Positions 2,484-53,789 of a stretch of 64,000 nt of DNA are shown one piece after another; position 1 is the stretch's first letter; each line of letters begins with the position of its first letter. Source of the stretch: Escherichia coli (GTDB taxonomy: Bacteria > Pseudomonadota > Gammaproteobacteria > Enterobacterales > Enterobacteriaceae); assembly GCF_003334385.1 (NCBI RefSeq), contig NZ_QOWN01000019.1. One strand, written 5' to 3'. Below the pieces are notes generated by a model. The model did not search any database and was not told the origin of the DNA. It saw only the letters and a program-made list of their open reading frames with translations. A program made the position numbers and the translations under genes.

Positions 2484-4324
2484 TTATTGCGACTGCCGGA
2501 CACGTTGACCACGGCAAAACAACCTTATTGCAGGCGATTACTGGCGTAAATGCTGACCGTCTGCCGGAAGAAAAAAAGCGCGGCATGACCATCGATCTCG
2601 GCTATGCCTACTGGCCGCAGCCGGATGGTCGCGTGCCTGGTTTTATCGACGTTCCCGGTCATGAAAAGTTTCTTTCCAACATGCTGGCGGGCGTTGGTGG
2701 TATCGATCACGCGCTGTTGGTGGTGGCGTGCGATGACGGCGTGATGGCACAGACCCGTGAGCATCTGGCGATTTTGCAGCTGACCGGTAACCCGATGCTG
2801 ACAGTGGCGCTGACCAAAGCCGATCGCGTGGACGAAGCGCGTGTTGATGAGGTTGAACGCCAGGTAAAGGAGGTTCTGCGGGAATACGGTTTTGCTGAGG
2901 CAAAACTGTTTATCACCGCAGCAACCGAAGGTCGGGGAATGGATGCCCTGCGCGAGCATCTGCTTCAGTTGCCGGAACGCGAGCACGCCAGCCAACATAG
3001 TTTCCGCCTCGCGATTGACCGCGCATTTACCGTAAAAGGTGCCGGGCTGGTCGTCACCGGTACGGCGTTAAGCGGGGAAGTGAAGGTAGGCGATTCACTC
3101 TGGCTGACTGGTGTAAATAAACCGATGCGTGTACGTGCGCTGCATGCGCAAAACCAGCCAACAGAAACCGCCAATGCCGGGCAGCGTATCGCGCTTAACA
3201 TCGCGGGTGATGCGGAAAAAGAGCAGATTAACCGTGGCGACTGGCTGCTTGCCGATGTGCCGCCAGAGCCGTTCACACGGGTGATTGTCGAGCTTCAAAC
3301 CCATACACCGCTGACCCAGTGGCAGCCGCTGCATATTCACCACGCCGCCAGCCACGTCACGGGACGCGTTTCACTGCTGGAAGATAACCTTGCTGAACTG
3401 GTCTTCGACACCCCGTTATGGCTGGCAGATAACGACCGCCTGGTATTGCGCGATATCTCTGCCCGCAACACGCTGGCCGGAGCGCGCGTCGTGATGCTTA
3501 ACCCGCCGCGTCGCGGTAAACGTAAGCCGGAATATCTGCAATGGCTGGCGTCTCTTGCACGGGCGCAGAGCGATGCCGATGCGTTATCTGTTCATCTGGA
3601 ACGCGGCGCGGTTAACCTTGCGGATTTCGCCTGGGCGCGCCAGCTCAACGGCGAAGGGATGCGCGAATTGCTGCAACAGCCTGGTTATATTCAGGCTGGT
3701 TATAGCTTGTTGAATGCGCCGGTTGCCGCCCGCTGGCAGCGGAAAATTCTCGACACATTAGCGACTTATCATGAGCAACATCGCGATGAACCTGGCCCTG
3801 GGCGCGAACGTCTGCGACGTATGGCGTTGCCAATGGAAGATGAAGCGCTGGTACTGTTGCTGATTGAAAAGATGCGCGAAAGCGGCGACATCCACAGCCA
3901 TCACGGCTGGCTGCATCTGCCAGATCACAAAGCGGGCTTCAGCGAAGAGCAGCAGGCCATCTGGCAAAAAGCAGAGCCACTGTTTGGTGACGAACCGTGG
4001 TGGGTGCGTGACCTGGCAAAAGAGACGGGAACCGACGAGCAGGCAATGCGCCTGACTCTACGCCAGGCGGCGCAGCAAGGAATAATTACCGCGATCGTTA
4101 AAGATCGTTATTACCGTAACGATCGGATTGTCGAGTTTGCCAATATGATCCGCGATCTCGATCAGGAGTGTGGTTCAACCTGCGCGGCGGATTTCCGCGA
4201 TCGCTTAGGCGTAGGCCGAAAGCTGGCAATTCAGATTCTGGAATATTTTGACCGCATTGGCTTTACGCGTCGTCGTGGAAATGATCATTTATTGCGCGAC
4301 GCATTATTATTTCCGGAAAAATAA
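2480..4324 (+). CDS. selB: selenocysteine-specific elongation factor, 614 aa
   Basis: N-terminal GTPase motif [19 protein letters not shown]; length 614 aa. Confidence 0.95.
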
Positions 4325-7912: not shown

Positions 7913-8236
7913 ATGTTCCTGGACTATTTTGCACTGGGAGTGCTTATTTTTGTATTTCTGGTGATCTTCTATGGGATCATTATTTTACATGATATTCCCT
8001 ACCTGATTGCCAAAAAACGTAATCATCCTCATGCCGACGCCATTCATGTTGCTGGTTGGGTGAGTCTTTTTACGTTACATGTTATCTGGCCGTTTTTGTG
8101 GATTTGGGCCACGCTTTACCGCCCGGAGCGGGGATGGGGAATGCAAAGCCATGATTCATCCGTTATGCAACTGCAACAGCGCATTGCCGGGCTGGAGAAA
8201 CAGCTCGCCGACATCAAATCCTCTTCTGCCGAGTAA
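7913..8236 (+). CDS. yiaW: small inner-membrane protein, DUF3302 family (107 aa)
   Basis: ATG 7913 preceded by GAGGGA; two hydrophobic helices; AT-rich. Confidence 0.85.
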
Positions 8237-8241
8237 TACTT

Positions 8242-9378
8242 ATGGATTTACTGATTATTTTGACCTATGTGGCTTTTGCATGGGCAATGTTTAAGATCTT
8301 CAAAATTCCCGTAAATAAATGGACCATTCCCACAGCGGCCCTGGGTGGAATATTTATTGTCAGCGGTCTAATTCTGTTAATGAACTATAACCATCCGTAT
8401 ACCTTTAAAGCGCAAAAAGCGGTTATTTCTATTCCTGTTGTCCCACAGGTGACTGGTGTGGTGATTGAAGTGACGGATAAGAAAAATACGCTGATTAAAA
8501 AAGGTGAGGTGCTATTTCGACTGGACCCGACGCGTTATCAGGCGCGGGTGGATCGGCTGATGGCGGATATCGTTACCGCAGAACATAAACAGCGGGCGTT
8601 GGGCGCAGAGTTAGATGAGATGGCGGCGAATACTCAGCAGGCAAAGGCCACGCGGGATAAATTCGCTAAAGAGTATCAGCGTTACGCACGTGGCAGCCAG
8701 GCGAAAGTAAACCCGTTTTCAGAACGCGATATCGATGTGGCGCGGCAAAATTATCTGGCGCAGGAAGCCTCCGTGAAGTCATCGGCGGCGGAACAAAAAC
8801 AGATCCAGAGCCAGCTGGATAGCCTGGTGTTGGGTGAACATTCTCAAATCGCCAGCCTGAAAGCACAGCTCGCGGAAGCAAAATATAACCTTGAGCAGAC
8901 GATAGTGCGTGCGCCGAGCGATGGTTATGTGACCCAGGTACTGATTCGTCCGGGTACCTATGCCGCGTCGCTGCCGCTACGTCCGGTGATGGTGTTTATA
9001 CCCGATCAGAAACGACAAATCGTGGCGCAGTTCCGTCAGAACTCCTTGCTGCGACTGGCTCCTGGCGACGATGCGGAAGTGGTGTTTAATGCTCTGCCAG
9101 GTAAGGTATTCAGCGGTAAGCTGGCAGCCATTAGTCCAGCCGTTCCCGGCGGAGCTTATCAGTCGACCGGCACCTTACAGACGTTAAACACAGCGCCGGG
9201 TTCAGATGGCGTTATCGCGACCATTGAACTGGATGAGCACACTGATTTGAGCGCTTTACCAGACGGTATTTACGCCCAGGTGGCGGTTTACTCTGATCAT
9301 TTCAGCCATGTCTCGGTGATGCGCAAAGTGCTATTACGCATGACCAGCTGGGTGCATTACCTTTATCTCGATCATTAA
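8242..9378 (+). CDS. yiaV: HlyD/EmrA-like membrane fusion protein (378 aa)
   Basis: N-terminal TM helix, coiled-coil region, 5 nt after yiaW stop. Confidence 0.88.
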
Positions 9379-10345
9379 TCTTCGCTTTCCGCCGCTTGTT
9401 CAGGCCGCAGTTGCTGCGACTGAGCAAGCTGGTGGCGAATTTCACGCAGCATTTCATCCAGCACATACTGGACCCGCCAGGGCTGGTATTCCCGTTTACG
9501 GAAGATAGCCACCAGATCCAGCCACCATTCATAGGGTTGCTGAAAGCAGGGCACCAGCGTGCCGTCTTGCAGGTCGCTCTGCACACTTTTGTCTGGCGCA
9601 AACACAATCCCCAGGTGATTTCGTGCCAGCTCCAGCGCAGATTGCGTGTTGTCGCAAACGTAATTTCCCTTCACGCGATAATCCCGCACCTCTTTACTCC
9701 CGGCGACGTTGAAGCGCCAGATATTCGCGTCGTCGATCATCATCGAGTCGATCAAAATACAGGAGTGATGTTCGAGTTCGTCAGGACGGCTAATGGGATG
9801 TTTCTCAAGATAGCGCTGGCTGGCATAAGCGGTTACGGCATATTGGGTAATAAAACTGGCAACCAGCGATTCATTGGTGGAGCGTAGCTGATTAAAACAT
9901 CACAATCATCAGGAAATTCGACGCCTTCATAAAAGGCATTACGCTCAAGATTGCAGGTTTTTAGCGATAAGGTGATATCACCGATATCTTTAATTTTATC
10001 GATTACATGTTTGGATAAATAGGTAATTATGCCGGTTGGGGCGTAGATGGTGACCCGACCACGTTTCTCATGTTTATAATCTGCAATAAAATTATTAAGT
10101 TGCTCGTTTCTGTCCAGCATGTCGTTGATGTACGGTAACAGCGCGGTGCCAAAAGGTGTGAGCATCAGCTGCCGGGTGGTTCGGTCAAAGACTTTTAAAC
10201 CCACTTTTGATTCAAAATCAGCAAGATATTTGCTGACGTTGGCCTGTGCGATGCCAAGTACAGTCGCGGCATGGCTGATATTTTCACTGGCAGCGATTAC
10301 CGAGATAATTTTTAACTCCCGGTACTTAAGTTGTAATTTTGTCAT
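9375..10345 (-). pseudogene. yiaU: LysR-family transcriptional regulator, apparently frameshifted (N-terminal 170-codon ORF 9833..10345 and C-terminal ORF ending 9375 are in different frames)
   Basis: HTH-containing ORF stops at TAA 9833-9835; remainder continues in the -1 frame, open from 9899 to stop 9375-9377. Confidence 0.7.
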
Positions 10346-10468
10346 CGCAACAGCCCAATTATATATAATTTTATATATTACTATATAAATATGAATCTTG
10401 CACCGGAGAAATTGTAAGCATTATTATGCCGACTCTTTTTTATCTTATTTTAAAATGGAATACCGGAC

Positions 10469-11209
10469 ATGTTAATTAATCGCAATATTGTGGCGTTATT
10501 TGCGTTGCCTTTTATGGCAAGCGCAACTGCTTCTGAATTATCCATTGGTGCTGGTGCGGCTTATAATGAATCGCCTTATCGCGGTTATAATGAAAATACG
10601 AAGGCAATTCCGCTGATTAGTTATGAAGGTGATACTTTTTATGTTCGTCAGACCACGTTAGGTTTTATTCTGTCGCAAAGTGAAAAAAATGAACTTAGCC
10701 TGACCGCATCCTGGATGCCGCTGGAATTTGACCCTACCGATAATGACGATTATGCCATGCAACAGCTTGATAAGCGTGATAGTACGGCTATGGCGGGGGT
10801 TGCCTGGTATCACCACGAGCGTTGGGGAACCGTGAAAGCCTCTGCAGCTGCGGACGTTCTGGATAACAGCAACGGCTGGGTGGGGGAGCTATCGGTATTC
10901 CACAAAATGCAGATAGGTCGTCTGTCGCTGACACCTGCGCTGGGCGTTCTCTATTATGACGAGAATTTCAGTGACTATTACTATGGCATTTCAGAGAGTG
11001 AGTCCCGTCGTAGCGGTCTGGCAAGTTATTCCGCGCAGGATGCCTGGGTGCCCTATGTCAGCCTGACGGCAAAATACCCGATAGGAGAGCACGTCGTATT
11101 GATGGCGAGCGCAGGATACAGCGAGCTGCCGGAAGAGATTACCGACAGCCCGATGATTGATCGTAATGAGAGTTTTACCTTTGTCACCGGGGTGAGCTGG
11201 CGTTTTTAA
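10469..11209 (+). CDS. yiaT: MipA/OmpV-family outer membrane protein (246 aa)
   Basis: Signal peptide, beta-barrel-like alternating pattern, C-terminal aromatic residue (…SWRF). Confidence 0.88.
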   Translation: MLINRNIVALFALPFMASATASELSIGAGAAYNESPYRGYNENTKAIPLISYEGDTFYVRQTTLGFILSQSEKNELSLTASWMPLEFDPTDNDDYAMQQLDKRDSTAMAGVAWYHHERWGTVKASAAADVLDNSNGWVGELSVFHKMQIGRLSLTPALGVLYYDENFSDYYYGISESESRRSGLASYSAQDAWVPYVSLTAKYPIGEHVVLMASAGYSELPEEITDSPMIDRNESFTFVTGVSWRF

Positions 11210-11555
11210 TTCACCGGTGGATGTCGGTGCGGCTGGTGCTCCGTCGTAATGCCACAAAGGTTGTTGCTCTGGATTGCTCTGTTCATACCGGGAACCTGGC
11301 GTCTGAATCAGGATCTTATGGCTGAACAATCCCTTGCCTTCAAATGTCGTAAATGGCGCATCGGCGGGCAGCAACAGGTTATGCAGTGACTCGACGTTGT
11401 CGGCCTGCTCCATGCAATACGGTTTAATGACGTTGGCTATTTCCGGCAGATTTTTCAGAAACATACTGGTTTAACGCCAGCAGCGTGGAAGCGGCGTTAC
11501 AGCAAGGAACATATCAATTCGTAGTGCCGGGGCGATGAAGCCCCGGCGTGAGGGA

Positions 11556-17535: not shown

Positions 17536-18039
17536 TTAAGCTCCTTGCGGTGGCGACGTTAGAGAATTGCTACGCGTGATGAGTTGATATAAATGACGCA
17601 GTTCAAAGAATGCGATAACGAGGCTGGTGGGCAGACAAGCGGCATACATCAGGCCGATGGGTAAACCGAGGATCGGTGAATAATCGCTCCAGTCCTGAAT
17701 TGTTTTTAGCGTTGCGCCCCAGGCCAGTGCGCCACAAATAAATAAGATTAAGGAATGGGTAACCAGAGCGACTCGTCGCTGCCATGCGGGGGAGAGTTTC
17801 TCCACCAGAAAGGTGACCTGAACGTGGGCGTTATCCATAAAAGCTACAATCGCGCCAATAAACGTTAACCAGACAAATAAATAACGTGACAATTCATCAA
17901 CAGATAAAATGCTTGTCTGAAAACCATATCTTAAAATAATGTTTATAAATACAATACAGGAAAGTACGGCGAGATTAATCGCCAGTATTGCTTCGAGTAT
18001 TTTTTTTTCATAGCTATTCCTTGAGGCTATGTCTGTCAT
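17536..18039 (-). CDS. yiaM: TRAP transporter small permease (start position somewhat uncertain)
   Basis: DctQ-family; ATG at 18037-18039. Confidence 0.85.
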
Positions 18040-21380: not shown

Positions 21381-22634
21381 TTAGTGACTTTCAGCCCAGG
21401 CTCTTTCTATCTCTTCCGCCAGAATCTTCACCCCCGCCTCAATTTTCTCCGGCTCTGGTACGTAGTTCATGCGCATACATTGATGCGTATGCGGCCACGG
21501 TTTATCCAGCCCTGGGAAGAAGTTGTGCCCCGGCACCATCAGCACGCCGCGTGCTTTCAGGCGCTGATAGAGCTGCTCGGTCGTAATGGGCAAATCCTTA
21601 AACCATAGCCAGAGGAAAATGGCTCCTTCCGGTTTATGAATCAGGCAGCGATTTTCCGGTAAATAGCGGCGAATGATGGCGATAGTTTCCTGAACACGCT
21701 GGTAGTAAAACGGTTTGATGACTGTTTCAGACAGGCGCAGCAGATCGTTACGCTTAATCATTTCACACATCATCGCCGGACCAATACCGCTAGGTGCCAG
21801 GCTGATAATGCCGTTCATATTGGTGATGGCGGTGATGATTTTTTCATTGGCGATGATAATGCCGCAGCGGGAGCCAGGTAGACCCAGCTTGGAAAGACTC
21901 ATGCACAGCACGATATTCGGATTCCATAGCGGGCGCGCTTCACTGAAGATGATACCCGGGAACGGGACGCCATAAGCGTTATCAATCACCAGCGGAATGC
22001 CGTGTTGATTCGCCAGCGCGTCAAGCTTCAGCAACTCTTCGTCAGTAATCACATTGCCTGTTGGATTCGTCGGCCGGGAGACGCAAATCATCCCGGTTTC
22101 TTCGCCAATATGCAGATGCTCAAAATCGACGTGGTATTTAAACTGGCCTTCCGGCAGCAGTTCAATATTCGGACGCGCAGAGACAAACAGATCTTCTTCC
22201 AGTCCGGCGTCAGCATAGCCAATGTATTCCGGTGCAAGCGGGAACAGCACTTTTTTGACCCGACCATCGGCACGGCGTCCGGCAAACAGGTTAAATAAGT
22301 AGAAAAACGCGCTCTGGCTGCCGTTTGTTAGTGCAATATTCTGTGGTTCGATATCCCAACCCAACTTCTCGCGCAGCATTCCGGCAAGCAGTGTGAGTAG
22401 CTCCGTTTTCCCCTGTGGACCGTCGTAGTTACACAGTGCATCAGTCGCTTTGCCACTTTCCAGCATGTCGGTCAGTAGCGTCTGGAAGTAGTCCTGCATT
22501 TCCGGGATCTGCGCCGGATTACCGCCGCCGAGCATAATCGCGCCAGGCGTGCGTAAACCGTCGTTCAGATCTTCCATCAACAGCGTAATGCCGGAGTGGC
22601 GGGTAAATTTGTCACCAAAAAGGGAGAATGTCAT
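21381..22634 (-). CDS. avtA: valine-pyruvate aminotransferase (417 aa)
   Basis: Native start MTFSLFGDKFTRHSG; track ORF extended 35 codons upstream. Confidence 0.92.
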   Translation of the reverse strand: MTFSLFGDKFTRHSGITLLMEDLNDGLRTPGAIMLGGGNPAQIPEMQDYFQTLLTDMLESGKATDALCNYDGPQGKTELLTLLAGMLREKLGWDIEPQNIALTNGSQSAFFYLFNLFAGRRADGRVKKVLFPLAPEYIGYADAGLEEDLFVSARPNIELLPEGQFKYHVDFEHLHIGEETGMICVSRPTNPTGNVITDEELLKLDALANQHGIPLVIDNAYGVPFPGIIFSEARPLWNPNIVLCMSLSKLGLPGSRCGIIIANEKIITAITNMNGIISLAPSGIGPAMMCEMIKRNDLLRLSETVIKPFYYQRVQETIAIIRRYLPENRCLIHKPEGAIFLWLWFKDLPITTEQLYQRLKARGVLMVPGHNFFPGLDKPWPHTHQCMRMNYVPEPEKIEAGVKILAEEIERAWAESH

Positions 22635-25986: not shown

Positions 25987-26049
25987 TTGCATTTCCTTGA
26001 GCCTTATCCGACTTGTCAGTCGTACTTTGTCTCAGGCAGTTGAGCTACG

Positions 26050-40277: not shown

Positions 40278-41117
40278 TTAAACACGAGGCATATAGGTCT
40301 GATTCCGATATTCAATTGGAGTCAGACCTTTTAATTTCAGGCTAATTCTTCTGCTGTTGTAGTATTCAATATATTCCGTAACAGCATCCTTCAGTTCGCT
40401 TATATTACTGAACTCATCAAGATAAAAACACTCCGACTTTAAGGTTCCAAAGAAACACTCCACCACAGCATTATCCAGACAATTGCCTTTTCTGGACATG
40501 CTTTGTTTAATACCATGTTCTTTAAGGATATTTTGATATCTTCTCATACGATACTGCCATCCCTGGTCAGAGTGCAGAACAGGATGCTCGTGATTGAATG
40601 CCTGATCGAGCATATTCTCAACCATGTTCATCACTGGTCTTTCCGAAAGGCTGTAAGAAATAACTTCGTTGTTGAAGAGATCTATTACTGGAGACAAATA
40701 CAGCTTGCGCCCATTGACTGCAAATTCAGTAACATCGGTAACCCACTTCTCGTTTGGCCGCGTAGCCTTGAAATCTCTTTGGAGAACATTAGGGGCGGTT
40801 TGCCCTACCTCTCCTCTGTAAGAGCGGTATCGCTTGACCTTAATCGCTGCTTTAAGTGAGAGGGTTCCCATCAGGCGCTGAACAGCTTTATGGTTAATCT
40901 GTTTCCCTTCTCGATGAAGAGACAGCGTTACCCTACGGTATCCGTATCGGCCTCTATTCTCGTGATAAATCTCACTAATACGCTTTTTAACGTCCGCATA
41001 CTTGTCAGGCTTGCTGAGAGCCTTTAGATGATAATAAAACGTACTGCGCGGTATCTCCGCAGCCCTGAGAAGCTCATCAAGAGGATAAAACTGCCTTAGC
41101 TCGTTGAGTACTTTCAC
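40278..41117 (-). CDS. insK: IS150 transposase OrfB (DDE integrase domain); native start may lie a few codons upstream / be reached by -1 frameshift from OrfA
   Basis: Track ORF 279 aa; rve-type catalytic domain. Confidence 0.88.
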
Positions 41118-53622: not shown

Positions 53623-53699
<77 letters not shown>

Positions 53700-53706
53700 A
53701 ATTCGA

Positions 53707-53735
53707 AAAGCCTGCTCAACGAGCAGGCTTTTTTG
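53707..53735 (+). terminator. rho-independent terminator of proK
   Basis: Perfect 11-bp stem aaagcctgctc / gagcaggcttt, loop aacg, T-run. Confidence 0.9.
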
Positions 53736-53789
53736 CATCTGCAGCTCATGAGGATGAGAACCTCCGGGGGCAGGGAGGTTCGACTCGAC

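Follow-up and report, generated by a model that had tools for sequence, protein, structure and literature searches.

The K-12 regulator YiaU/LpsR and the locus in the window

The closest described counterpart of the locus studied here is the LysR-type transcriptional regulator (LTTR) YiaU of Escherichia coli K-12 (b3585, WP_000164036.1), which has been renamed LpsR and binds at waaP in ChIP-exo (PMC9068703). Knockout of yiaU in K-12 lowers expression of waaPSBOJYZU, a distant LPS-core operon that forms the main target set, raises yiaT by 2.8 log2 and confers oxacillin sensitivity in microaerobic growth, a regulon that comes from one systems study under a single growth condition (PMC9068703). 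The genes yiaV and yiaW lie outside the data given in that study (PMC9068703). The literature that we searched yielded no regulatory link from YiaU to yiaV or yiaW and no functional study of YiaU besides PMC9068703.

We analysed 64,000 nt of E. coli DNA (hereafter the window), corresponding to positions 1–64000 of the draft whole-genome shotgun (WGS) contig QOWN01000019.1 (GCA_003334385.1). The window is phylogroup-A and K-12-like, being 99.9% identical to K-12 over 64 kb, and an IS150 element adjoining hokA is common to the two. Its yiaU locus (lpsR, b3585 orthologue; 9375–10345, minus strand) displays the same synteny as K-12. On one side, yiaW–yiaV (encoding a DUF3302 protein and an HlyD-family protein; 7913–9378, plus strand) is convergent with yiaU, the stop regions overlapping by 4 nt (9375–9378); on the other, yiaT (encoding a MipA/OmpV-family outer-membrane protein; 10469–11209, plus strand) is divergent. 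All three neighbouring genes are intact, and their proteins are identical to those of K-12. The 123-bp control region shared by yiaU and yiaT (10346–10468) shows no differences from K-12 and contains AT-rich palindromes at 10360–10391 together with promoter-like hexamers; the palindromes could represent candidate LysR-type operator sites. The original prediction for this DNA had named yiaVW and yiaT as the genes that YiaU is best placed to control; for yiaT, this view is backed by its derepression in the K-12 knockout (PMC9068703). Where the window departs from K-12 is within yiaU itself, which lacks AAAG at codons 158–159 and encodes a 170-amino-acid product rather than a 324-amino-acid regulator.

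A 4-nt deletion divides yiaU between two reading frames

In the window, yiaU occupies two frames of the minus strand and measures 971 nt, compared with 975 nt in intact alleles. The N-terminal open reading frame (9833–10345) comprises 170 codons from an ATG at 10345 to a TAA at 9833–9835, specifying 157 native residues followed by 13 out-of-frame residues (MNRWLPVLLPNMP). The C-terminal frame (9375–9899) comprises 174 open codons, has its nearest upstream stop at a TGA at 9900–9902 and closes with a TAA at 9375–9377; it encodes native residues 160–324, the remainder of the LysR_substrate domain. The two are offset by 2 nt ((10345 − 9377) mod 3 = 2) and are open together only across the 64 nt between 9836 and 9899. 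These coordinates match exactly those of the original prediction, which had described yiaU as an LTTR gene frameshifted by an indel within that interval, and alignment places a 4-nt gap there. In the C-terminal frame no start codon lies upstream of 9755/9743 and the first ATG is at 9743/9740, from which a product of 121–122 amino acids without a DNA-binding domain would be read. Logan gene calls assign PF00126 to the 170-amino-acid product and PF03466 to a 121-amino-acid product; in the NCBI gene lists compared (L013 and L019), no gene is called at the position of the deleted yiaU.

Alignment of the window to K-12 MG1655, ET734, CP8-3_Sichuan, CP099192.1 and loci L020–L024 reveals a single 4-nt gap, CCACCA[AAAG]ATGAATC on the coding strand, at 9873–9875 (plus-strand junction 9873/9874). 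Its placement is ambiguous by 1 nt, the bases lost being either AAAG or AAGA in the coding strand (TCTT or CTTT in the plus strand). Intact yiaU reads CCAAAAGATGAAT over the deletion site, with CCAAAAGATG / CCACCAAAAGATGAATC at the site itself, and the deletion allele reads CCACCA/ATGAATC, the slash marking the junction. Chance is not at issue here because the deletion is based on alignment and not on statistics. The comparison with K-12, which the original prediction had proposed, returned one gap of exactly these 4 nt. Loss of the bases takes out Lys158, disrupts Asp159 and shifts the frame at codon 158, after which translation would run through 13 out-of-frame codons into the stop. When AAAG is put back, the translation is 324 amino acids long with zero differences from K-12 YiaU (WP_000164036.1), as anticipated from the sequence alone on the assumption of 4 added nucleotides. 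A SNP near the deletion, at 10073, is synonymous, since the repaired protein is without differences from K-12 YiaU. Overall, the yiaU of the window shares 99.6–99.7% nucleotide identity with annotated yiaU in complete genomes and combines an indel whose length is not a multiple of three with a premature stop, the two marks of a frameshift pseudogene.

We also considered how the deletion originated. Slippage at an 'aatgaat' heptamer had been proposed as the cause; this heptamer is missing from intact yiaU and arises only where the deletion has joined its flanks. The missing AAAG lies outside any tandem repeat or homopolymer, and the flanking microhomology amounts to just 1 nt. Slippage at this heptamer was rejected as the origin.

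Domain content of the truncated product

LTTRs require a complete two-subdomain effector domain for oligomerization and for response to ligand. Pfam analysis of the repaired YiaU identifies HTH_1 at residues 9–66 (E = 1.1e-12) and LysR_substrate at residues 95–302, and the repaired protein aligns to solved LTTRs, including structure 3mz1 over residues 19–280. The 170-amino-acid product retains HTH_1, the linker helix and the first ~63 of ~208 effector-domain residues, with ~70% of the effector domain gone. Set against the hallmarks of the family, the N-terminal winged helix-turn-helix (HTH_1, PF00126) lies wholly inside the 170-codon frame, orthology to K-12 yiaU is evident from position, neighbours, 99.6% nucleotide identity and 100% identity of the repaired protein, and yiaT supplies a divergently transcribed target that has its control region in common with yiaU, its regulation being known from K-12. 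The contiguous PF03466 domain that should follow on the same polypeptide is absent, as the domain is split at residue 158 between the two frames. By these features the yiaU of the window reads as an orthologue by descent that is incomplete as an LTTR, and the lack of a contiguous effector domain argues that it is not a functional member of the family.

Judged by domain architecture alone, the allele is most likely null, because LTTR function needs an effector fold that the fragment cannot form. Without the two-subdomain fold, the fragment would assemble no tetramers and would give no response to ligand. The K-12 knockout sets the expectation for such a strain, in which the divergent yiaT would be derepressed and the waaPSBOJYZU LPS-core operon would be less active.

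A real deletion could alternatively have left an altered-function variant rather than a null, with the HTH–linker fragment keeping some activity, for example as a ligand-blind dimer on the yiaT operator or by interfering with other LTTRs. DNA-binding-domain–linker fragments of LTTRs can dimerize through the linker helix, HTH_1 (residues 9–66) is complete in the fragment with the linker kept up to the start of the effector domain at residue 95, and the promoter/operator region is unchanged relative to K-12. However, the fragment ends in an incomplete Rossmann-like subdomain (~63 residues) and 13 foreign residues, for which misfolding and degradation would be expected, and LTTR regulation normally proceeds through tetramers built by the effector domains. 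We give residual activity only a slim chance and favour the null allele.

The deletion is confined to a recent clone

We examined the distribution of the allele in 5,426 complete E. coli genomes by a megablast search with the yiaU region. The gene is present in 3,776–3,779 of these and missing in ~30%; at least 80% of the query is covered in 3,739 of 3,776 matches, and every full-length match spans 1,155 nt, compared with 1,151 nt in the window. An intact 975-nt yiaU was found in 59 of 60 evenly sampled records. Full-length matches to a 121-nt junction probe centred on the deletion came from 3,767 complete genomes, each aligning at 96.8% over 125 nt, as the 4-nt gap dictates, and none carrying the deletion.

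Most genomes with the lineage marker of the window, LyxK C218Y, have an intact yiaU (324 amino acids). The nearest relative of the window, GCA_021440825.1, also has an intact yiaU and differs from it across 21.5 kb in no more than three SNPs, the yiaU deletion and two T residues in the yiaM homopolymer. Since the nearest relatives keep the intact gene, the deletion is derived, recent and limited to a small clone, having arisen in one phylogroup-A, K-12-like E. coli lineage. The gene is dispensable and now and then lost, and its loss is tolerated, given that ~30% of complete E. coli genomes lack it. The simplest reading of the loss is neutral or mildly selected decay in one clone. We regard as unlikely a stronger proposal in which the loss was selected in the clone because YiaT derepression and lower waa expression generated an envelope phenotype that aided its spread; if that were true, phage or antibiotic susceptibility might be altered, in a lineage that has been sampled in several data sets.

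The deletion recurs in separate assemblies

The window is drawn from a draft WGS assembly and no complete genome carries its yiaU allele, both of which would fit a sequencing or assembly artefact masking a true genome with an intact gene. Against this, a second NCBI draft with a different WGS prefix, GCA_002190145.1, holds a contig in the opposite orientation (LYBI01000335.1) that is 100% identical to window positions 3757–25253 (21.5 kb) and carries the deletion. An exact-sequence look-up further placed the 170-amino-acid product on five Logan contigs from public read sets. One of these, ERR1948963_107, assembled from raw reads by a different assembler, is 100.000% identical to window positions 199–20345 (20,147 nt); nucleotide comparison covers this contig, and the other four, from four other read sets, were matched by the exact 170-amino-acid product. 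The allele has thus been seen in three submission sources and with at least two assemblers, although the sources may partly share isolates or DNA, and the lesion is placed in the DNA beyond one assembly at the level of assemblies (two NCBI drafts and Logan). The site also lies outside homopolymers and tandem repeats, the contexts in which short- or long-read indel errors concentrate, and the other K-12 coding sequences mapped in the window are all full length, which indicates that the assembly is not indel-ridden overall. Assembly error, which the original prediction had named as a finding that would overturn it, is very unlikely as the source of the deletion on the evidence of these recurrences. 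A literature search on the assembly and run accessions (including GCA_003334385, GCF_003334385, QOWN00000000, QOWN01000000 and ERR1948963) found no paper.

Programmed −1 ribosomal frameshifting or transcriptional slippage in the 64-nt overlap, by which full-length YiaU would still be made, has a practically negligible probability and was ruled out by the absence of a slippery site together with the lack of conservation: a −1 shift anywhere in 9836–9899 would join both frames, but no XXXYYYZ slippery heptamer occurs in any frame across 9833–9902, the homopolymers there are two T4 runs only, the split is found in 0 of 3,767 complete genomes and 59 of 60 sampled records have the uninterrupted gene, and the junction sequence is a fresh product of the deletion. 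Taken as a whole, the evidence is best explained by a genuine, recent, clonal 4-nt deletion that most likely leaves yiaU null, with the expected regulatory consequences being those of the K-12 knockout, a reading in which we have high confidence.

Other sequence variants in the window

The split yiaU had been put forward as the one clear lesion in the window. This stands insofar as all K-12 coding sequences mapped there, yiaU and yiaM aside, translate at full length; it leaves out a 2-nt gain in an A-run of yiaM and an in-frame 12-nt deletion in IS150.

The yiaM gene (encoding a TRAP small permease; open reading frame 17536–18039, minus strand) contains an A-run (plus-strand T-run at 18000–18008) of nine residues in the window versus seven in K-12 and the closest relatives. 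With A9, the upstream ATG at 18039 is in frame and the product has 167 amino acids; with A7, an inner ATG is used and the product has 157 amino acids (MKKILE...), the core protein being common to both forms. The 167-amino-acid form is found in several genomic backgrounds, with 452 blocks listed in the public collection. We rejected the 2-nt gain as a second lesion, as it brings the upstream ATG into frame and the product is a common natural allele. In one low-coverage metagenome contig (L020), the run is A8, neither start is in frame and a 100-amino-acid call is all that is made. The A-run could be mutable and act as a switch, either between start codons or between the on and off states of the TRAP small-permease gene.

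Compared with the IS150 elements of K-12 and CP8-3, the copy next to hokA has its in-frame 12-nt deletion at 40593/40594; this deletion costs the transposase four residues (QAFKKLNPHEHP to QAFNHEHP) and was seen in the window assembly. In the bax–xylR intergenic region, a further 12-nt deletion (GATAAGGCTTTT) at 26022/26023 distinguishes the window from K-12, CP8-3 and CP099192.1, within a spacer that varies by lineage (about 107, 183 or 195 nt among the loci compared). The 12-mer lost there loosely resembles that lost from IS150 (GGATTAAGCTTT), a likeness that is probably coincidence. After tRNA-Pro in the eptB–dppA interval (~53681–53788), the repeat region of K-12, where K-12 annotates the RtT sRNA, is ~168 nt longer. 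The yhjY–yhjX intergenic region has an extra 21-nt tandem copy (GGCATTTCATTCCGTTCTGAT) in CP8-3, at the position equivalent to 50193, that is found in neither the window nor K-12.

Seven transitions set the window apart from K-12 and CP8-3 alike, and all are G:C>A:T (10073, 14601, 21791, 29800, 38110, 41822 and 45727). Those at 21791 (avtA, G282S) and 38110 (glyS, synonymous) affect the inner cytosine of a Dcm site (CCWGG), a classic hotspot of 5-methylcytosine deamination. At least 14601 (LyxK C218Y) and 10073 are also present in other isolates, which argues that the G:C>A:T changes are polymorphisms of the lineage rather than private damage. A mutagenized or decayed genome, suggested by several indels and mostly G:C>A:T substitutions relative to K-12 and CP8-3, was rejected: the other mapped K-12 coding sequences are intact, and several seemingly private variants, including LyxK C218Y and yiaM A9, are widespread natural alleles.

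In K-12-like genomes, the RefSeq annotation of the interval from yiaT to sgbE/araD (11210–11555) shows two gene remnants, one from the AraC family and one hypothetical. In other E. coli lineages (L009, L012, L015 and L016), sgbE is immediately followed by genes for an AraC regulator, here intact, for an MFS_2 transporter and for a GH127 protein. The yiaT–sgbE junction is thus an old site of indel or replacement, which may be the reason for the absence of yiaTUVW from ~30% of genomes.

Comparison with known inactivated regulators

The allele described here is an ordinary strain-specific frameshift pseudogene of a known, partly characterized regulator, with nothing mechanistically new. The split yiaU of this draft genome is confirmed as a true pseudogene, to be flagged as such and neither repaired nor merged. 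The deletion is a marker for a small K-12-like E. coli clone, and its importance beyond annotation is slight. Isolates of the clone, as putative natural yiaU/lpsR nulls, could serve to check the regulon proposed for K-12, in which yiaT would be raised, waa lowered and oxacillin sensitivity acquired.

Other disrupted yiaU alleles among complete E. coli genomes include an IS1A insertion in strain G6/7, an IS903B insertion in GD33 and an HTH-only remnant in CUWW06, for which NCBI annotates separate HTH and substrate-binding fragments. The window resembles them in the sporadic, strain-specific inactivation of the same dispensable regulator; whereas they result from IS insertions or larger deletions, the allele in the window is a clean 4-nt deletion that does not occur in complete genomes. 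It also resembles the generic frameshift pseudogenes of regulators in E. coli and Shigella, in which a single small indel introduces a premature stop into an accessory gene with intact surroundings in a recent clone. From these pseudogenes nothing notable sets it apart, and the window shows no broad genome decay.
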